64,000 bases of DNA. Source: a virus. The DNA is taken from positions 1-64,000 of the IMG/VR virus record IMGVR_UViG_3300032249_000925; one strand, 5' to 3'. A program made the translations under genes and the position numbers. The notes below the pieces were generated by a model, which searched no databases, had not been told where the DNA came from, and saw only the letters and a program-made list of their open reading frames with translations. Positions 18,078-33,011 of the stretch are shown here, in pieces (the first letter of the stretch is position 1; every line of letters starts with the position of its first letter).

Positions 18078-20066
18078 TCAAGCAAAGATTAGTCTAGAAA
18101 CACCTGGACCATAGTTACTTGTAACTTGCGCAAAACCAGTACGTAAGCTAGCAACCATAACACGGCGCTGTGTTTCAACTAGTTCTTGTGTATCAATACG
18201 TAGACCACGTTGATTACCAATTACGAAGTTGCCTGGAGCAATACAGAAAGCACCAATGTTATTAAATGTTGTGCCTGCTGTAGTTGTAGTACCATCTAGC
18301 TCGCCACTAACTAGTACTGGGCTGTTACCAATTTGGCCGATTTGACCTGTTAGTAATGTAGCTGAAGGACCAACTTGGTTCATAGTCTGGAATACTGTGT
18401 CTTCTAGTAGATTGTAGTAGATATTGGTATTAACAACATAAACTACATCTGCTGGATCAAGACCCCAAACTCCAAGTTGTCTACGTAGTGAACGTAAATT
18501 AGCAACTGTAACTGCTGTAGTGGCACCAGTAATTGAAGTAGTATTAGCGGTTGCACTACCACCTACACCACCAATTGCCCAAGTACCTAAACCAACAACT
18601 GGGTCGCCACTAGTAGCACCAGGTGCTGTGTTACCACCACCACGTAGGATTGCTTTATCAACTGCACGAGCAACGCGACGAATCATGCCATCACGAATTA
18701 CAGGCATAATAGCAAGAAGGCTATCTTCCTCTTCTTCGTAAGCTGTGTACTCGTTGGTAGCAACTTTGTACGCGCTTAATGTGACTTCTTTAATTGCATG
18801 TATTTGACTAGTACCAGCACTAGCACTAGCACCAAAACTTGTGTTATCAACCCAAGTAGCGCTACCTGCTTCTGGATTAACTGGAATCTTCATTACGTTA
18901 GTTTGCATAGCAATCTGACGGAATAGTGGTGCAACTACTAGTCTACGACGAACTTCAGCTTCCATTGATAGTGAAACTTCTTGTTCCCAAGTAGCATTAG
19001 GTAAGTGTGGGCCTTGGCCACTACCAGCATATTTTTGAACTAAGTCATAACCAAATTTGGTAGACTCAATTGGCTTGTTAGCCATTTTAGCTAGTAGAAC
19101 TGCTTTTTCTTTGTCTGCGTAGCTTAGTTCATTCTTGTCACTAGCAAAATGCATACGTGACTTTTGAACAGCTTCTAGTTCTTGAGCTTTTTCTTTTAGT
19201 GCAGCTTCTAGACCAGCAATTGCGCTTTTTTGTGTTTCTTGTTCAGCAGCAAAGCGCTTTTCAACTTCTGCTAGTAAACGCTCAGCACCTGTATCAACTG
19301 TTTGTACAGTTGCAACAGCTGCTTTAATTTTAGCGTCAAAATCAGCTGCAGCTTTTTCAGCAGCTGCTTTTTCAACAGCAGCTTTTTCTTGTGCGTCTGT
19401 AATGTGTTTTGCTGCTAGTTGAGCAGCTTTTTCAGCAGCCTCAGCTACTAACTGTTCGATCTGTTTTGAATCCATGTTCAATTCCTTTATAGTTTCGCCA
19501 TTTGCTACTGTAGAGGAGTCTAGCTCTTTAGCTGATTCCGATTTAAGTGCAAATTGCAGTTTGAAAGACCTTAGTTCTTCACTTGTATCAAAAGATTTAG
19601 ATAAACTAAAAATGGTGTTTTGGTTTGCGGGTACAGAAACTACAGAAATTTCGTGTAGTTCTAGTTCTTTAACAACAAACAGCTCAGTAGCTGAATCATA
19701 TTGTGCGTCTATAATGCGAAAGCCGATACTAAAAGCAGTTAATACGCCGTCTTTTATTAAATTAAAGACGTCTTCTGCAGCTGCAGAAATTCTTGCCTTA
19801 ATCCATAAACCTTTATCATCTACTCTATGTTCTATCATTCTACCAACTGGTTGGCAATGCTCATGGTAAGCTAAAATTACTGGATTTTTTAAGTAATTTT
19901 CCATGCCTTTTTGCCAAACTTTAGCTGAAACAACGTCGCCTTGCCTATCCATGTCTATGGTACTTGCGTAACCTTCGACCATAATTGAGTCAATTGTTTC
20001 ACTAGCTGTTGGTAGATCCATGCTTTTAGTAAAAGCACTAGTTAAGTGTAATACTTTATCTACCAT
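18078..20066 (-). CDS. HK97-type prohead protease fused in frame to major capsid protein (internal capsid start likely at 19475)
   Basis: VEGYAST...NPVILAYH...FSIGF...LHEISVVSVPAN protease motifs, then coiled-coil delta domain and HK97 capsid fold; AAGGAA 6 nt before the internal ATG 19475. Confidence 0.9.
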   Translation of the reverse strand: MVDKVLHLTSAFTKSMDLPTASETIDSIMVEGYASTIDMDRQGDVVSAKVWQKGMENYLKNPVILAYHEHCQPVGRMIEHRVDDKGLWIKARISAAAEDVFNLIKDGVLTAFSIGFRIIDAQYDSATELFVVKELELHEISVVSVPANQNTIFSLSKSFDTSEELRSFKLQFALKSESAKELDSSTVANGETIKELNMDSKQIEQLVAEAAEKAAQLAAKHITDAQEKAAVEKAAAEKAAADFDAKIKAAVATVQTVDTGAERLLAEVEKRFAAEQETQKSAIAGLEAALKEKAQELEAVQKSRMHFASDKNELSYADKEKAVLLAKMANKPIESTKFGYDLVQKYAGSGQGPHLPNATWEQEVSLSMEAEVRRRLVVAPLFRQIAMQTNVMKIPVNPEAGSATWVDNTSFGASASAGTSQIHAIKEVTLSAYKVATNEYTAYEEEEDSLLAIMPVIRDGMIRRVARAVDKAILRGGGNTAPGATSGDPVVGLGTWAIGGVGGSATANTTSITGATTAVTVANLRSLRRQLGVWGLDPADVVYVVNTNIYYNLLEDTVFQTMNQVGPSATLLTGQIGQIGNSPVLVSGELDGTTTTAGTTFNNIGAFCIAPGNFVIGNQRGLRIDTQELVETQRRVMVASLRTGFAQVTSNYGPGVSRLIFA

Positions 20067-26593: not shown

Positions 26594-26920
26594 ATGGCAG
26601 AAAAAGCCGTAAACTATAGCCCTGAGCAAACCGCTCAGGTAATCGCGGATTATACCGCTGGTGTTAGCGTGGAGAGCATTGCATTGGCAATGGGTAAATC
26701 CGTTCGCTCAATCGTTGCTAAACTGTCACGCGAAGGTGTGTATCAGAAAAAAGCATACAAAACCAAAACGGGTGAACCCGTTGTGAAAAAAGATGCTCAT
26801 GCTGATGCAATCGGCGCAATCTTGCGCTTGCCTGAGAATGACATTGAGTCATTGACTAAGGCTAACAAGAGCGCGCTTAAGGCGATCTTTGAAGCATTGG
26901 CTAATTCCAAGCCAATCTAA
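26594..26920 (+). CDS. T5 A2-like DNA-binding protein, copy 1
   Basis: HTH-like KSVRSIVAKLSREGVY and IESLTKANK resemble T5 A2; GGGAG RBS. Confidence 0.7.
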   Translation: MAEKAVNYSPEQTAQVIADYTAGVSVESIALAMGKSVRSIVAKLSREGVYQKKAYKTKTGEPVVKKDAHADAIGAILRLPENDIESLTKANKSALKAIFEALANSKPI

Positions 26921-27518: not shown

Positions 27519-27583
27519 GGGTGTTGCAAAAAAACAACACCGCTGGCGCCAAATTATAACATATAATTTGGGAGCGTGTCAAG
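27519..27583 (-). repeat. Leftward promoter-hairpin element, copy 1
   Basis: Minus strand TTGACA-18-TATAAT; -10 inside palindrome CCAAATTATA-n3-TATAATTTGG; then GGCGCC and a GGTGTTG/CAACACC hairpin. Confidence 0.8.
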
Positions 27584-27698
27584 AGGGTGGGCAAAAATAC
27601 CACACTAGGGAAAACCCTGCGTCAATGTGTCGCACCCCTAGGGCTTGCATTCTCTGAAAATCGGCGTATAATAGTCTACATGGATCGGAGACAAAACG

Positions 27699-27866
27699 AT
27701 GGCAACTAAACTACACTTGGCGCTGGCAATGAAAAAAGCCAGCAAACCAGATAATCGGGCGCATAAGCCACTATTTGTGAATAGCCCATTTAAGCCAAAG
27801 GTTATTCCCAATAAAAAACAAAGCAAATTGGCTAAACTGTTTAATGGTTGGGGTTTTGATGACTAA
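27699..27866 (+). CDS. Small basic protein (55 aa), weakly ArfA-like
   Basis: Not in the ORF track; GGAG RBS; MATKLHLALAMKKASKPDNRAHKPLFVNSPFKPKVIPNKKQ... Confidence 0.55.
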   Translation: MATKLHLALAMKKASKPDNRAHKPLFVNSPFKPKVIPNKKQSKLAKLFNGWGFDD

Positions 27867-28056
27867 ATTCAAATTGATTGAGGAAGCCGCAAGGTTTGAA
27901 ACGTCGCAATTAAAACGCGATGAATTGATTTATTTTGTAGAATCTGTTAAAATGCACGAGATGATGGAATTAGATTATCCGGCTTTAGTAAAACGCATTG
28001 AGCGTACTGCTAAACACTTGGTTGACGTTGCACAATTTTTTGATAAAGGAGAGTAA
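27859..28056 (+). CDS. Hypothetical protein
   Basis: ORF overlapping the previous stop. Confidence 0.55.
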   Translation: MTKFKLIEEAARFETSQLKRDELIYFVESVKMHEMMELDYPALVKRIERTAKHLVDVAQFFDKGE

Positions 28057-28057
28057 T

Positions 28058-28240
28058 ATGATGTACATGGCAAAAAGCATTAACGACGATAATATCACTT
28101 CAATGGGTAATAGCATTGAGGAAATTTGGCAAGACTTGCAATTTGCCTTTGAATTGTCAGACGAAGAATTTGATGATTTAGAATGGTTTGAGATTGAACC
28201 AATTAAGGTAACCCGTAAATTGGAATTCGTTATTGAATAA
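28058..28240 (+). CDS. Hypothetical acidic protein
   Basis: AAGGAG RBS; Asp/Glu-rich. Confidence 0.65.
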   Translation: MMYMAKSINDDNITSMGNSIEEIWQDLQFAFELSDEEFDDLEWFEIEPIKVTRKLEFVIE

Positions 28241-28247
28241 ATAACGA

Positions 28248-28392
28248 GCAGGTGTTGTAAAAATACAACACCTGCGGCGCCAAAATTATAACATATAATT
28301 TTGGGACGTGTCAAGCAAAATTTGAAAAATTTGTGTTGTATTTATACAACGCTTGGCGCCAAAATTATACCACGGCAAAAATTTTTTGTCAA
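28248..28392 (-). repeat. Leftward promoter-hairpin elements, copies 2 and 3 (tandem)
   Basis: TTGACA-18-TATAAT and TTGACA-17-TATAAT, each followed by GGCGCC and a GTTGTA/TACAAC hairpin. Confidence 0.8.
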
Positions 28393-28487
28393 TAGGGGTT
28401 TCCCCTACTGTTGTATTTTTGCACTTCTTGGCACAACCCGATTTTTCGTGTATAATTCTCTACATGGACACAACGCAAGGCGACAAG

Positions 28488-28967
28488 ATGATTAAGCGTA
28501 TCGCAATTTATGACATGGACGGAACAATCGTAGACTCGTCGCATCGTTACCGGACCATTTTAACCGATCAAGGTGAGCGAATTGATATTGGCTATTGGCG
28601 AGATAATCAGCACTTGGCAATGTTGGATGGCCTATTGCCATTGGCTAATAAATTCTGGGATGACCTGGACGATCCAGAGTGTTATACAATTATTGCGACT
28701 GCGCGTGTAATGAATGAACCCGATTGGGAATTTTTAAATACTAAATTGGGAATGCCTGATTATGTTATTTCGCGTACTCGCGATGACCAGCAATCAGGTT
28801 CCACGCTAAAGATTAACGGTTTGATCGAATGCTTTAAAACTGCTAATATCAATTTAGCTAATATGCAAGATGTTGTTTTCTATGAGGACAATGTGCAGTA
28901 TTTAAAAGCGGTATGCGATTATTTTAATATTCGTGGCGAGTATATTCCAAGTAAACAAGGACATTAA
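28488..28967 (+). CDS. dmp: Deoxynucleoside-5'-monophosphatase (HAD family, T5 Dmp-like)
   Basis: YDMDGTIVDSSHR, LLPL, ATARVM, FYEDN resemble T5 Dmp. Confidence 0.75.
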   Translation: MIKRIAIYDMDGTIVDSSHRYRTILTDQGERIDIGYWRDNQHLAMLDGLLPLANKFWDDLDDPECYTIIATARVMNEPDWEFLNTKLGMPDYVISRTRDDQQSGSTLKINGLIECFKTANINLANMQDVVFYEDNVQYLKAVCDYFNIRGEYIPSKQGH

Positions 28968-28968
28968 A

Positions 28969-29064
28969 ATGACTAACGGAAACGATCCTGATAAAATTGT
29001 TTTTTATGCACTAATTGCCAGCACATTGGCAGTTGCTTATCTTGTTTTTACCGGAGCGGTATAA
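28969..29064 (+). CDS. 31-aa membrane peptide
   Basis: AAGGA RBS; IVFYALIASTLAVAYLVF; stop overlaps the next ATG. Confidence 0.55.
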   Translation: MTNGNDPDKIVFYALIASTLAVAYLVFTGAV

Positions 29065-29429
29065 TGAAAGCATGGAATGAATTAAACCGATTGGAACAAT
29101 TGGCAATAACCCATTGGGATCTTTATAAAGACGCGCATGGGGTGCGTCCGCGTTGGCTTGATACTAGCCAATGGGATGAATCAGATTTTGAATTGGCGGT
29201 TACTGAATTGTATACTATTTGCGATCGCAATGAGCGTATGCGAATTGCTGATGAATCGGCCGCATTTGAAGTTGTCAAAACGCGCATTGCTGCATTGCAA
29301 GAAATGCATGGTTTTGATTGGAATGAAGCCGTTAATTGGTTACACGCTGAATACGAAACTAATGGCGATCAGGGTTATTTAGAGTTTCAATTGGGCATTG
29401 CATACGGTGCTCTTACCTTAAAGGATTGA
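29064..29429 (+). CDS. Hypothetical phage protein
   Basis: WDLYKDAHGVRPR motif seen in phage hypotheticals; GGAG RBS. Confidence 0.65.
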   Translation: MKAWNELNRLEQLAITHWDLYKDAHGVRPRWLDTSQWDESDFELAVTELYTICDRNERMRIADESAAFEVVKTRIAALQEMHGFDWNEAVNWLHAEYETNGDQGYLEFQLGIAYGALTLKD

Positions 29430-29638
29430 TCATGGATTTTTTAAATTATGACATTCTAGACTGTTGTGGTGCTTATGGTCGCAAGGCCAATTGGGACGAT
29501 TGGGTTAATGGCCTAGACTTTAAAATTATTGATGGTCCGTATTTTAGCATTAAAGATTGCAAGGAATTAAGCAAGGAATATGACGAATTGCATTTTCGTT
29601 CTGCAATGGGAATTGAATTCCGGGTGTATTTAAAATAA
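29426..29638 (+). CDS. Hypothetical phage protein
   Basis: GAYGR...DW..G.DF.I..GPY.SI motif. Confidence 0.6.
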   Translation: MIMDFLNYDILDCCGAYGRKANWDDWVNGLDFKIIDGPYFSIKDCKELSKEYDELHFRSAMGIEFRVYLK

Positions 29639-29646
29639 ATAACGAA

Positions 29647-29795
29647 ATGTGTTGCAAAAAAACAACACATGGCGCCAAAATTATACCATATAATTTTGGG
29701 ACGTGTCAAGAAAAATTTTGTAAATTTTTCGTGCTGTTGTATTTATACAACAGCTGACGCGCCAAAATTATACCACCAAAAAATTTTTTTGTCAA
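29647..29795 (-). repeat. Leftward promoter-hairpin elements, copies 4 and 5 (block resembles 28248-28392)
   Basis: Same tandem architecture; hairpins ATGTGTTG/CAACACAT and GCTGTTGTAT/ATACAACAGC. Confidence 0.8.
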
Positions 29796-29899
29796 TAGGG
29801 GAAAACCCCTATGTTGTATTTTTGCACTTCCTGGCACTTGGCGAATTTTCGTGGTATTATCTTAACTCGGCGTCGTGCCGTGGCTAACCCTTATCTATC

Positions 29900-30601
29900 G
29901 TGGCTAAAAAACAGTTTTTTGCAATTCTCGACACTGAAACCACTTGCAACGATACCGTTGCAGATTTTGCAATTGTTATTTGTGATCGTAATGGTCGCAT
30001 TTACAATAAATGCGCGGTTTTGGTTCGCAATCATTTTGATGCAATGGATCTTTTTTATGACAAAACAAAAAGCAATCAAGAAATGTGGTCGCGTGAATAT
30101 GCAAGCAAAAAGCAAACCCAATACTTTGCAATGCTTGATTCAGGTTCGCGGCAATTGGCGTCTGTTGCCGCAATCAATGGTTGGATTCAAAAAGCCATTG
30201 GCAAATACAACCCTACATTAACCGCCTACAATCTGGCTTTTGATAAACAGAAATGCCAAAATACTGGCATTGATCTTTCGGGTTTTGCTGAATCGTTTTG
30301 TTTATGGCAAGCGGCTATTGGCAATATTTGCAAAAAACAATATCGTCAATTTGCACTTGACAATCATTTGTTTAATGCTCCGACTAAGCACGGCAATATG
30401 TCGATTAAATCGACTGCTGAATCTGTTTTTGCGTTTTTAAATGGTCAATTTGTTGAAGAGCCACATACTGCATTAGAAGATGCACAAGACTTTGAGTTGC
30501 CAATTCTGGTAAACATTCTCAAAAAACGCAATTGGCGTGACAATATCATTGCACATGACTGGAAAAAATTTCAAGTCAAAGATTTTTACAAGGCAATCTA
30601 A
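29900..30601 (+). CDS. DEDDh 3'-5' exonuclease
   Basis: LDTETT, AYNLAFD, HTALEDA. Confidence 0.85.
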   Translation: MAKKQFFAILDTETTCNDTVADFAIVICDRNGRIYNKCAVLVRNHFDAMDLFYDKTKSNQEMWSREYASKKQTQYFAMLDSGSRQLASVAAINGWIQKAIGKYNPTLTAYNLAFDKQKCQNTGIDLSGFAESFCLWQAAIGNICKKQYRQFALDNHLFNAPTKHGNMSIKSTAESVFAFLNGQFVEEPHTALEDAQDFELPILVNILKKRNWRDNIIAHDWKKFQVKDFYKAI

Positions 30602-30602
30602 A

Positions 30603-30944
30603 ATGGAAAATTTAGCATATTACACTAAATTTCTGGGGTTGAAAAGCCCTGTTGAATTGACGCTTAAAACCGAGCACAATAAACATTCGGATGCAGTTTA
30701 TTGGCCTAAATTTTCCAACAAAGGCAATTTAAAAGCGCATAAAATTGTAGTATACCTGGGCAATCAAACCCCTAATTCTCGACGTACCCTAGACGAATTG
30801 ATCGCGCACGAATTGATTCACGCTTGGCAACAAGAAAACAATATAGCCGAATTTCACGGGCTTAATTTTCGTATGCTTGCAATTCAAATGAGCGACGAAT
30901 TTAATTTGCCTAATATTTACCTTGCTGATTTAGACCTCGAATAA
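30603..30944 (+). CDS. SprT-like/zincin metallopeptidase
   Basis: LIAHELIHAWQ...HG..F. Confidence 0.7.
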   Translation: MENLAYYTKFLGLKSPVELTLKTEHNKHSDAVYWPKFSNKGNLKAHKIVVYLGNQTPNSRRTLDELIAHELIHAWQQENNIAEFHGLNFRMLAIQMSDEFNLPNIYLADLDLE

Positions 30945-31004
30945 TTCACACTTGATTAACCCATCCCAACCCTGTATAATATTAACTTAACTGGAGAAAA
31001 CGCA

Positions 31005-31331
31005 ATGGCTGAAAAAACTGTAAACTATACCCCTGAGCAAACCCTGAATCTGATTGCTGATTACAAAAACGGATTTACCGTTGAGGAATTGGCTTTGCAA
31101 TTCGGCAAATCGGTTCGCTCAATTGTTGCTAAACTCTCGCGTGAGGGCGTTTACGAAAAGAAAACCTATAAAACAAAAACCGGCGAAGCAGTTGTTAAAA
31201 AAGACGCGCACGCTGATGCAATTGGTGCAATTCTCCGATTGCCAGAAAATGACATTGAATCCTTGACCAAGGCTAATAAATCGGCATTAAAAGCCATTTT
31301 TGACGCATTGGCTAATTCAAAACCCATTTAA
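31005..31331 (+). CDS. T5 A2-like DNA-binding protein, copy 2
   Basis: Near-identical C-terminal half to 26594..26920; own TTGATT-17-TATAAT promoter and GGAG RBS. Confidence 0.75.
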   Translation: MAEKTVNYTPEQTLNLIADYKNGFTVEELALQFGKSVRSIVAKLSREGVYEKKTYKTKTGEAVVKKDAHADAIGAILRLPENDIESLTKANKSALKAIFDALANSKPI

Positions 31332-31341
31332 TCGGGTATTT

Positions 31342-31369
31342 AATAAAACCGGCAATTGCCGGTTTTATT
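31342..31369. terminator. Bidirectional terminator
   Basis: Perfect palindrome aataaaaccggcaattgccggttttatt. Confidence 0.8.
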
Positions 31370-31376
31370 TTATCTA

Positions 31377-31545
31377 TATCGTTTTAAAATTTATAACGAT
31401 CGCGGCGCCGATTATACTTGTATAATCGGGGACGTGTCAAGAGGTTTTGCAAAAATACAACATAGGGACTTACCCTAATAGTCGTCTTAAATTTTGGAAC
31501 GATGTGGCGCCAAAATTATACCATAATTTTGGCGGACGTGTCAAG
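31377..31545 (-). repeat. Leftward promoter-hairpin elements, copies 6 and 7
   Basis: TTGACA-18-TATAAT with palindromes CCGATTATAC/GTATAATCGG and CGCCAAAATTAT/ATAATTTTGGCG; GGCGCC follows. Confidence 0.75.
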
Positions 31546-31549
31546 GGCT

Positions 31550-31820
31550 GGTGCAAAAATACAACATAGGGACAAACCCTAATAGGGTAAACCCTGAGGG
31601 CAAAATTTGCCGTTGTTTTTTTACCACACTGCACTTTTTGCCGTTGTTTTTTTACCACGGTAAAATATACCTGCTAAATTTTGCTACGATTGTGCACCGC
31701 AGCAAAAGGGCAAAATGCCCCTGCGCCAGTGCAAAAACTAGTGCAAATTCTTGTGGGTGCCCGGCGCCAGTGGCGAGTCAAGTGCAAATTCTTGAGGGTT
31801 ACAAGTGCAAAAACTTGCAG
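31550..31820. repeat. Noncoding repeat cluster (injection-stop-signal-like candidate)
   Basis: 22-bp direct repeat tttgccgttgtttttttaccac at 31606 and 31637; agtgcaaa x4; agtgcaaattcttg x2; gcgccagtg x2; TAGGG..CCCT inverted repeats. Confidence 0.6.
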
Positions 31821-31976
31821 TTGAATGTGTGGGTCAATCACTGTATAATAATATCTTAGACAGTTAGGAACCGATACAAACTTAGCCAGACCCTAGTAAT
31901 TTTGATCTTGATATCGACAACTGAACAGCGTATAATAGAATCTTCAACAGCGCAGAAACCAAAACACAAAGGACAT

Positions 31977-32288
31977 ATGATGACTGACAAAACTGTAAAC
32001 TACACCCCAGAGCAGACCGCTACCGTTATCGGACTTTACACCACAGGCAGCTCTGTGGAGATAATCGCCGAGCAGATGGGCAAAAGCGTGCGGTCGATTG
32101 TGGCAAAACTCTCCCGTGAGGGAGTGTACATCCCTAAGACCGCGGCTAAGGGTCAGGGCCGAGTTACTAAGGCCGACCTGATCGGTCGCCTTGCCAACAA
32201 GTTTGAGATTGATGCCACCGAAATCTCCAGCCTTGAAAAGGCTGGCATGGGTGCTCTAGAGCTCCTGGTGCAAAAAGCCGGGGCATGA
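31977..32288 (+). CDS. T5 A2-like DNA-binding protein, copy 3
   Basis: KTVNYTPEQT...KSVRSIVAKLSREGVY...SSLEKA; AAGGA RBS. Confidence 0.7.
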   Translation: MMTDKTVNYTPEQTATVIGLYTTGSSVEIIAEQMGKSVRSIVAKLSREGVYIPKTAAKGQGRVTKADLIGRLANKFEIDATEISSLEKAGMGALELLVQKAGA

Positions 32289-32313
32289 CATACCGGGGAG
32301 AAGAAATTTAATC

Positions 32314-32342
32314 TTGATTCTTCTCCCCAAACCCTGTATAAT
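32314..32342 (+). promoter_or_regulatory. sigma70 promoter of the large ncRNA candidate
   Basis: TTGATT-17bp-TATAAT; -35 overlapped by inverted repeat ggggagaagaa/ttcttctcccc. Confidence 0.75.
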
Positions 32343-32348
32343 ATTATT

Positions 32349-32923
32349 ATAGACAGTTAGGAAAGCGCGAGTCAACGACTAAGGCGCAGATACCAGTAAA
32401 CGTACCACTACCCCGCCTAGAAGCCAATGTATAGCTAGCAATTTGTAGTGCCAAGTACAAGTACTGACGACTGTTTTATCTCAATGGGTGACAGCGGCGC
32501 AGATTTGCTGCAGCGTCTTAATTGTGGAGAACTTATGTTAAGGCCGAGCCACAGCCCTGAGCAAAGAATTAAAATCCTGGACTGCTAAGACTCGCTATCT
32601 AAGGGAGGTCAGGTGGTTGTAAATACCTAAACTTACCAAGTTGTCTAGAACTTGTAAATAATTTAGACGGTATCCAAGCAACCTCAATCTGGTGTGCAAC
32701 TAGAGCAGTACTGTCCAGCGGTTAGGCCCGCTGGTTAAAATATAGGCCCAGGGTCAATGACGCAGTGTGCTAGTGCTTGCGCTAGTTGCTCTGCTAGACC
32801 CAACGCGGAATGACAGGCTACCGTAGCAAAGCGCTTTGCGAAAACCATGTCGGACCAGCATTAAAAACTGTTTACAGTTCAAAACCCCGCAAGGCGACGG
32901 CCTTAGCGGGGTTTTGTTTTTTT
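32349..32923 (+). ncRNA. Large structured noncoding RNA candidate (~575 nt)
   Basis: Bounded by a promoter and a terminator; no ORF of 60 aa or more; 5'/3' closing helix and several long-range complementary segments. Confidence 0.65.
32881..32923 (+). terminator. Intrinsic terminator
   Basis: aaaaccccgcaagg-cgacgg-ccttagcggggtttt followed by a T-tract. Confidence 0.85.
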
Positions 32924-32945
32924 GCTCAGCTTTTCATTTTTTAAG

Positions 32946-33011
32946 GTAGTCTGTTTTTGGAGGCAGACTACGGCGCCAATATTATACAGTGCAAAACCTA
33001 TTTGTGTCAAG
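32946..33011 (-). repeat. Leftward promoter-hairpin element, copy 8
   Basis: TTGACA-18-TATAAT, GGCGCC, hairpin GTAGTCTG/CAGACTAC. Confidence 0.7.

Follow-up and report, generated by a model that had tools for sequence, protein, structure and literature searches.

Why would a phage point eight perfect promoters against what appear to be its earliest genes, with nothing for those promoters to drive? The question is raised by a stretch of 64,000 nucleotides (nt) of viral DNA (the window) at the start of a 99,362-bp IMG/VR contig (IMGVR_UViG_3300032249_000925) from an uncultured lake relative of phage T5. The ends of the contig overlap by about 124 bp, so the circle closes. For both two-step DNA injection and site-specific nicks, T5-type phages are the textbook example, and we know of no mechanism for the T5 stop signal, for the nicks, or for the shut-off of the pre-early genes. 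The region that concerns us, 26.5-33 kb, is at the position of the T5 terminal repeat, which in T5 is the DNA that is injected first. Here we describe a conserved, countable element in this first-injected DNA that joins a perfect host promoter, the core motif of a nick site, and interchangeable palindromes. Within the window, copies of the element, which we call units, are confined to the terminal-repeat position.

The anatomy, conservation, orientation, and placement of the units can be observed directly. The window contains 11 perfect matches to TTGACA-N16-19-TATAAT, versus 0.11 expected from shuffled sequences, and 8 of the 11 are minus-strand matches within 27.5-33.0 kb. The original prediction, which was made from the sequence of the window, had listed eight such copies, each with a -35 box and a -10 box 17 or 18 nt apart on the minus strand and then GGCGC. 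All eight are present, and the layout holds in each of them: on the minus strand (27519-33010), a unit consists of TTGACA, a 17- or 18-nt spacer, TATAAT, 1-3 nt, and GGCGC (Table 1). Both hexamers match the sigma-70 consensus at 12 of 12 positions in every unit, six of the eight units have a TG extension 5' of the -10 box, and units 2, 4, and 8 have A/T-rich runs upstream. By these features, the units have the look of true sigma-70 promoters under selection. The sequence GGCGCC occurs nine times in the 99-kb genome, and seven of these copies are within units.

Besides the promoter, a unit has up to two palindromes. First, in five units (1, 2, 4, 6, and 7), the -10 box lies within a palindrome with arms of 10-12 bp. 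The four pairs of covarying arms that had been quoted for five copies are found in these units. (We set aside promoters of the N4 hairpin type and of the F-plasmid single-strand type: the -35 box is outside the palindrome, and no gene for a virion polymerase is evident.) Second, it had been claimed that every unit opens with a hairpin just downstream of GGCGC. We see a good hairpin in five or six of them, and the sequences after units 1, 2, 4, 5, and 8 fold far better than shuffled sequences do (z = -2.6 to -6.6). The claim does not extend to all eight, as units 6 and 7 have weak AU-rich stems. By a rule for intrinsic terminators, the hairpins of units 1, 2, and 4 pass in the direction of the promoter, and none pass in the sense direction. 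Units 3, 5, and 7 are in tandem with another unit, with no gene in between, while canonical terminators separate units 6 and 8 from the genes. The hairpin therefore belongs to the unit and not simply to the adjacent gene.

Related contigs show how widely this design is kept. The 15-mer TATAATTTTGGCGCC matched at least 119 IMG/VR stretches, versus 14 for a control 15-mer with one T fewer. Among the matches listed, 106 of the 119 stretches contain the full motif, with at most 14 copies per stretch, and the copies within one stretch are nearly all co-directional. These stretches align to the terminase-to-cassette region of the window at 65-91% identity. Our family set comprises 420 distinct units from more than 100 IMG/VR contigs. 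The downstream hairpin is present in 81% of family units versus 4% of shuffles; it has a median stem of 11 bp and a loop of mostly 3-4 nt, and it begins 3-9 nt from the first G of GGCGC. In 67% of the family, a palindrome spans the spacer, the -10 box, and the discriminator, versus 2.5% if the spacer is shuffled. We counted 95 distinct pairs of arms, in which a change in one arm is matched in the other, and usually the GG of GGCGC closes the stem. This bears out the idea, from the original prediction, that both structures are retained even as their sequences change.

The orientation of the units is as consistent as their anatomy. Summed over the family, open reading frames (ORFs) opposite the units amount to 152 kb, versus 34.5 kb on the same strand. 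In 81% of family units, the stop codon of a sense ORF is within 60 nt of the hairpin, with a median distance of 12 nt. Strong promoters on the unit strand are followed by GGCGC in 344 of 415 cases, versus 0 of 86 on the gene strand, and the G+C fraction of the 8 nt that are 3' of the -10 box is 0.65 on the unit strand versus 0.36 for gene-strand promoters from the same loci. The gene-strand promoters are ordinary: they have an AT-rich discriminator, then a ribosome-binding site and a start codon. A divergent sense promoter is often back to back with a unit, and the distance between the two -35 boxes peaks at 20-60 nt. (We rejected by eye the idea that the mirrored TATAAT of a unit forms a sense promoter, as it has no -35 box and no TG extension.)

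As had been noted, the units drive no ORF and are antisense to plus-strand genes of pre-early type. No minus-strand ORF with a plausible start lies downstream of any of the eight units in the window, and the minus-strand ORFs that had been listed at 27985-28314 and 29473-29709 begin on the TTG of the -35 box itself. We judged the plus-strand cassette genes to be real from their ribosome-binding sites (identified by eye) and their homologues, which include T5 dmp and the A2/D5-like proteins.

Table 1. Units, their hairpins, and other features of the window. Hairpin z-scores compare the fold of the 50 nt from GGCGC with folds of shuffled sequences.
Feature	Position	Strand	-35 box	GCGCC (plus strand)	Details
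Unit 1	27519..27582	-	27577-27582	27546-27550	-10 box 27553-27558 within palindrome CCAAATTATA/TATAATTTGG
Unit 1 hairpin	27520-27541	-			T-rich tail; fold -16.9 kcal/mol, z -3.25
Unit 2	28248..28314	-	28309-28314	28277-28281	-10 box 28285-28290 within palindrome with 11-bp arms
Unit 2 hairpin	28248-28275	-			12 bp; starts 8 nt past stop of plus-strand gene at 28240; -22.9 kcal/mol, z -6.6
Unit 3	28330..28392	-	28387-28392	28356-28360	Type B, in tandem with unit 2; A6T5 spacer; no -10 palindrome
Unit 3 hairpin		-			Weak, marginal; z -1.1
Unit 4	29647..29709	-	ends at 29709	29672-29676	Built like unit 2
Unit 4 hairpin	29647-29670	-			T-rich tail; 9 nt past stop at 29638; z -4.1
Unit 5	29733..29795	-	ends at 29795	29759-29763	Type B, in tandem with unit 4; GGCGCG, the sole copy that is not GGCGCC
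Unit 5 hairpin		-			9 bp; z -3.5
Unit 6	31377..31440	-	ends at 31440	31405-31409	-10 box within covarying palindrome CCGATTATAC/GTATAATCGG
Unit 6 stem		-			Weak, AU-rich; z +0.5; canonical bidirectional terminator (31342-31369) comes next
Unit 7	31482..31544	-	ends at 31544	31507-31511	Palindrome with 12-bp arms, CGCCAAAATTAT/ATAATTTTGGCG
Unit 7 stem		-			Weak, AU-rich; z -0.8; then small hairpin TAGGG..CCCTA with T-rich tail
Unit 8	32946..33010	-	ends at 33010	32973-32977	Outermost; orthologous across relatives; spacer has GGTTTTGCACTG (core of iss-type repeat)
Unit 8 hairpin		-			GTAGTCTG/CAGACTAC; z -2.6; bidirectional terminator (32880-32915) comes next
Sense promoter of dmp cassette	28428..28456	+			11/12 match; AT-rich discriminator; adjoins unit 3 back to back, -35 boxes 36 nt apart
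Similar sense promoters	29831-29860; 30952-30980; 31821-31849; 31908-31936; 32314-32342	+
dmp homologue	28488..28967	+			5'-deoxyribonucleotidase, a pre-early gene in T5; tblastn E 6e-10
A2/D5-like protein, paralogue 1	26594..26920	+
A2/D5-like protein, paralogues 2 and 3	31005-31331; 31980-32288	+
iss-like array	31690..31830	-			Four CAAG(A/T)(A/T)TTTGCACT repeats
Promoter-less CACTG-GCGC sites with palindrome, in iss-like array	GCGCC at 31723 and 31764	-

We did not find this design in the other places where we searched. The T5 terminal repeat has no such units, and neither the region nor a two-unit stretch had a match (by megablast or blastn) among 50,697 records of cultured phages; the nearest cultured phages are T5-like, with protein identities of 35-46%. 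A scan of bacterial genomes for the full unit motif gave scattered single promoters only, mostly in GC-rich taxa and at about the number expected by chance (by our estimate). These bacterial matches gave no clue to the host and no link to ribosomal RNA (rRNA) or transfer RNA (tRNA) genes, with 6 of 122 near a tRNA. Our literature searches found no published description of an inverted promoter-hairpin design.

Four known systems do resemble the units in part. The first is the stringent promoters of rRNA operons. E. coli rrnB P1 reads TATAAT-GCGCC-ACC. Promoters of this rrn P1 type serve rRNA; their spacer is 16 bp, and their -35 box departs from the consensus. Discriminators of the GCGCC type give short-lived open complexes that are sensitive to supercoiling, to ppGpp and DksA, and to the initiating nucleoside triphosphate. 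The units share with rrn P1 the strong core elements, the A/T-rich upstream DNA, and this type of discriminator, but their GGCGC is 0-4 nt further downstream, they drive nothing, and the likeness is one of sequence. Second, phage lambda has a constitutive convergent promoter, pO, just past an early gene; its short structured antisense RNA, OOP, overlaps the end of the cII coding region and triggers cleavage by RNase III. The units are also convergent promoters just past early genes, but their hairpin is about 12 nt beyond the stop codon, so that an overlap would need read-through, and there are eight or more copies instead of one.

The third and nearest described element is the PeSL (promoter-early stem-loop) of T4-type phages, which combines a stem-loop with near-perfect sigma-70 promoter elements (PMC2839356, PMC4122927). 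Like PeSLs, the units are short composites of stem-loop and promoter, they are present in many copies in a variable region of small ORFans, and they are conserved as a class across related phages. But the orientation that defines a PeSL is not that of the units. A PeSL is a terminator and then a promoter that drives the next gene, all in the sense direction, while the promoter of a unit is inverted, has the hairpin downstream, and drives no gene. Also, PeSLs have no counterparts of the units' GGCGC, of the -10 palindrome, or of the confinement to a terminal repeat. We class the units as a composite promoter/stem-loop boundary element, with a real chance that they are something more.

The window also has a candidate for something closer to a PeSL. 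As a side observation, a different module recurs, with TAGGG(G)-loop-(C)CCCTA and then TGTTGTATTTTTGCA, on the plus strand (28393-28422 and 29795-29826) and on the minus strand (31581-31552 and 31477-31448). It sits just 5' of a -35 box and points in the same direction as that promoter, so it looks like either the classical (PeSL-like) arrangement of a stem-loop plus promoter or an UP element. Its TGTTGTA half-motif also makes the arms of hairpins 1-5.

The fourth system is synthetic. A part in which a reversed constitutive promoter comes after a unidirectional terminator (Brophy and Voigt 2016, PMC4731013) has the identical layout at the 3' end of a gene. It represses the upstream gene through polymerase collisions and antisense RNA, its effect scales with the strength of the antisense promoter, and it is cancelled if the terminator also stops the antisense polymerase (PMC4731013). 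The synthetic part is engineered, single-copy, and constitutive, while the units are natural, arrayed, and have extra conserved features. The two also differ in whether the hairpin should stop the antisense polymerase.

What might the units do? Polymerase binding is required in any model, because both hexamers and their spacing have been kept at the consensus in hundreds of diverged copies. We lean, at somewhat less than an even chance, towards the units being real sigma-70 promoters with a GC-rich discriminator that, together with the hairpin, form a "terminator plus reverse promoter" brake or boundary for each of the pre-early cassettes, perhaps with DNA topology or nicks as the gate. A convergent reverse promoter that is joined to a hairpin is the simplest model that uses most of the features. 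The transcription, interference, and timing that this model involves are what we infer from the sequence.

The brake might work as follows. Each unit would be a self-contained module, read by the host's sigma-70 RNA polymerase and convergent at the 3' end of a pre-early cassette. The consensus boxes, the TG extension in most copies, and the A/T-rich upstream DNA in several would make for very efficient capture of polymerase. The fixed GGCGC between the -10 box and the start would make opening dependent on supercoiling and on the physiology of the host, as at rRNA-type promoters and in contrast to the sense promoters with their AT-rich discriminators. A polymerase that is bound or initiating at a unit would collide head-on with the rightward sense polymerases, and the hairpin would cap the sense mRNA at its 3' end and the leftward RNA at its 5' end. 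Where the hairpin fails to stop the leftward polymerase, there might be antisense shut-off of pre-early genes as well. As to the gate, the units would be quiet on relaxed, freshly injected DNA and would plausibly turn on after repair and supercoiling of that DNA. As brakes or boundaries, the units would be a natural counterpart of the synthetic-biology part and a new means for phages to time their first genes. Judging from their sequences, they would also be compact, very strong, and portable promoter-and-stop modules.

There are several arguments against a brake. Use of the promoters is a prediction from sequence. Neither the exact GGCGC nor the covarying -10 palindrome is needed by a brake, tandem units with no intervening gene are superfluous for a boundary, and a plain U-tract would be a cheaper way to terminate sense transcripts. 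The genes behind the canonical bidirectional terminators that units 6, 7, and 8 face cannot be braked by these units. Also, a strong antisense promoter with no gate would harm the first genes of the phage, so the model has to assume a gate that is unproven. Finally, protein-binding palindromes (parS and Fur-like) in the hairpin slot of relatives, which we discuss below, point to protein binding on the DNA. The competing readings of the units are not exclusive.

One alternative is that the RNA products are what matter. The units would then make abundant short RNAs, with GCGCC and a hairpin at the 5' end, that serve as decoys, primers, or regulators; the original prediction had suggested decoys of about 40 nt. 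By our reading, every unit in the window meets a T-tailed hairpin or a canonical terminator within about 80 nt. Similarly, in the family, the 10 nt past the hairpin contain 3.4 T on the promoter strand versus 2.0 on the sense strand, but this T-richness may just be the reverse complement of the region around the sense stop codon. Canonical terminators in the direction of the promoter are present in 17% of family units by +45 nt (versus 4% in the sense direction) and in 32% by +122 nt, and given the 17% we rejected the idea that the hairpin is, as a general rule, a canonical terminator. The decoy proposal is weakened by this, and also by the absence of a conserved RNA sequence: the hairpins vary between genomes, and loops of 3-4 nt are too small for kissing contacts. 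In Rfam, no family matched at the gathering score, and there were only sub-threshold, terminator-like matches near 32880-32970. Furthermore, mismatches within the stems, as read on the promoter strand, are A.C in 33 cases and G.T in 14 (p ~ 0.01, by our own binomial estimate), so G.U pairs seem to be tolerated in RNA from the sense strand, which favors folding of that strand. (Strand-biased mutation could also cause this asymmetry.) We are very doubtful that short RNAs are the main function of the units.

Another alternative starts from the nick sites of T5. These nicks are in one strand only (PMC3517423; PMC10644984), with the consensus R/GCGCRGG (PMC3517423). In the T5 record AY543070, one nick has no note that it was identified by consensus, and it is on the minus strand inside the injection-stop (iss) region. 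Its sequence is TTTGCACAAAA/GCGC and then a perfect palindrome with 9-bp arms, and more broadly the iss region has a run of ATTTGCACA repeats that ends in AAAA/GCGC, with the palindrome next. The array at 31690-31830 in the window looks like the equivalent of that part of the T5 region where the repeats, the nick, and the palindrome lie. It lies amid the units, its repeats contain TTTGCAC as do those 5' of the T5 iss nick, and its site at 31723 (TTTTTGCACTG/GCGCAGGGGCA..TGCCC) has the same build as the mapped T5 nick site. Among the units and iss-type sites, this one alone has GCGCAGGG. In relatives, GGTTTTGCACTG-GCGC plus a palindrome is on the unit strand by 22 to 1. The units thus share GGCGC plus a palindrome with a probable homologue of the stop-and-nick region of T5. 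A purine followed by GCGC on the minus strand, which is the strand that is nicked in T5, is present in all eight units and at both iss-type sites. Neither the T5 nick motif, the iss-like array, nor the protein-binding palindromes of relatives had been part of the original prediction.

So the units might act mainly at the level of DNA, as dispersed, promoter-bearing relatives of the injection-stop/nick region. A strand-specific nick would fall at G/GCGC, or a protein that acts at such sites would do so there, with a palindrome on each side, and polymerase binding would be an added layer or else what is gated by the nick. Opening on relaxed injected DNA would be aided by a nick at the start site in the non-template strand, and the same nick, which is in the template strand of the sense genes, would end sense transcripts just past the hairpin. 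We consider this possible, if on the whole not likely. It accounts for GGCGC, for the palindromes, and for the strand bias, in a genome that shares both gene order and orientation with T5, and the genome does encode homologues of the split NAD-ligase and the flap endonuclease of T5. On the other hand, it leaves the conserved, perfect -35 and -10 boxes unaccounted for. The extended consensus R/GCGCRGG does not hold in the units: what follows GGCGC is C in seven of them and GT in unit 5. The T5 sites are promoter-less, few, and dispersed across the genome, just one of four has a strong hairpin, and they have an upstream YGTAAY box that is absent from the units. BLAST of the T5 iss region against the region of the window gave no alignment beyond 9- to 13-mers. 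We found no candidate for a nickase, and there is no HNH domain in the genome.

A side observation concerns T5 itself. A second box, (C)RYGTAAY, lies 34-36 nt upstream of R/GCGCRGG at all four annotated nicks (L120:9700-9800; T5 22337 and 39747, in L121; and T5 78574, in L122). Four other matches to R/GCGCRGG in the first 110 kb of T5 are without it and are not annotated as nicks. As this box is found at the annotated nicks alone, recognition of T5 nick sites looks bipartite.

The brake and the nick can also be combined. Units would then be nick sites that are embedded in promoters: the nick would be at the start site, next to the GC-rich discriminator, and also in the template strand of the sense gene. 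While the DNA is newly injected, nicked, and relaxed, the nick would stop each sense transcript just beyond its 3' hairpin and determine the state of the reverse promoter, and ligation and supercoiling after full entry would flip that state. This specific combination seems quite unlikely to us. If it were true, it would be a purely topological clock for pre-early expression, and it would provide a concrete function for the long-unexplained T5 nicks and for the palindrome-rich injection-stop region. More broadly, if the units are sites of nicking or of protein capture, then old questions about T5 could be tested with simple constructs.

Capture of proteins is suggested by what takes the place of the hairpin in relatives. 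In the 300 nt after family units, there are 34 matches to parS (with up to two mismatches), versus about 0.03 expected (by our estimate), and 32 of the 34 are within +80 nt. Near-perfect parS (TGTTTCACGTGAAACA) is within +80 nt of a unit's GGCGC at one locus (L016) and at 23 others. At L016, parS is often preceded by a palindrome that resembles a Fur box (AAATGCGAATCATTCGCATTT) and also resembles the T5 iss repeats. Fur-like cores cluster just 3' of GGCGC in relatives, and other operator-like palindromes recur in the same slot. Tight binding of polymerase with slow escape is the expected behavior, from promoter kinetics, of consensus boxes with a GC-rich initial sequence, and this would favor tight binding at the units. 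The window has eight units, and the locus of one relative has as many as 14 motif matches in about 9 kb; they are confined to the terminal-repeat position, and the tandem units suggest that dosage matters. So the units might together be a trap for host proteins on the first-injected DNA, with sites of very high affinity for RNA polymerase and with palindromes for other abundant DNA-binding proteins: ParB and Fur-like factors in some relatives, and DnaA boxes in T5. Such an array would act on the entering DNA as a ratchet, an anchor, or a shield, or would draw off host factors, and any transcripts would be by-products. DnaA boxes have been proposed by Davison as the T5 stop signal (10.1101/866236).

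Nevertheless, we think that an array for capture is unlikely to be the main explanation. In the window, there is no parS, and we found no named operator in the hairpins. The main class of hairpin in the window, GTGTTGYA..TRCAACAC, is present in nine other loci and matches no operator that we could name. Most hairpins are long perfect stems with loops of 3-4 nt, which is more like a nucleic-acid hairpin than an operator. Capture requires neither a fixed orientation nor GGCGC, and a drain on polymerase would harm a phage that depends on the host's polymerase throughout. If proteins of the phage bind here, then the A2/D5-like proteins are candidates for binding the palindromes or the iss-like repeats. 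These three paralogues of about 105 amino acids match phrog_1725 ("DNA binding protein") and phrog_323 ("transcriptional regulator, D5-like"), and one of them weakly resembles T5 A2 (BLASTP E = 0.006).

A last alternative is that the units are chiefly recombination anchors, as has been considered for PeSLs, with their sequence identity promoting the exchange of cassettes. The units do bound small ORFan cassettes in a variable region, and one more distant relative (L024) has an extra unit where its gene content differs. Also, comparisons of hairpin regions show a shared 8-mer in 23% of cases within a contig, versus 6.6% across contigs, which is expected from exchange or gene conversion. However, L004 and L100, which are the closest relatives (about 90% identical), have their two indels in a 5' leader and within a gene, not at units. 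Alignment blocks tend to end at gene borders, with 1.1 ends per 100 nt in units versus 11 per 100 nt in other intergenic DNA, in what is a test of low power. The inverted orientation and GGCGC would also be unaccounted for, and it is very unlikely that exchange is what the units are mainly for. Protein capture, small RNAs, and recombination anchors each explain less than a brake or an action at the level of DNA does.

By tblastn of T5 ORFs, the gene order of the genome is collinear with T5 and in the same orientation: tail, head, portal, and terminase genes are on the minus strand at 12-24 kb, a further minus-strand block is at 33-40 kb, and tRNAs, ligase, helicase, primase, polymerase, and flap nuclease are on the plus strand from 40 kb. 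This collinearity and the location of the units make the labels "pre-early" and "two-step injection," which were used in the original prediction, reasonable. In these tblastn searches, T5 A1 had no homologue in the genome. The polarity of the cassettes does differ from T5. In T5, dmp (on the minus strand), A1, and A2 run leftward, while in the window dmp is on the plus strand, and all of the cassette genes run rightward, away from the presumed leading end. The leftward polarity is kept in the window only by the units, which have no genes.

We also noticed some features that are not related to the units. A 662-amino-acid ORF on the minus strand (18078-20066) is similar to the prohead protease of T5 in its N-terminal part and to the major head protein of T5 in its C-terminal part, so it is a fusion of protease and capsid, which are separate genes in T5. 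On the plus strand, 32314-32923 includes about 570 nt with no ORF, and has its own promoter and a strong bidirectional terminator (32880-32915); it is a candidate for a long non-coding RNA. Its promoter and the start of its leader (CCCTGTATAATATT...TAGACAGTTAGGA) resemble those at 31821-31870. Finally, between unit 7 and the iss-like array, there is a direct repeat of GCCGTTGTTTTTTTACCAC, with two copies 31 nt apart (31609-31660).

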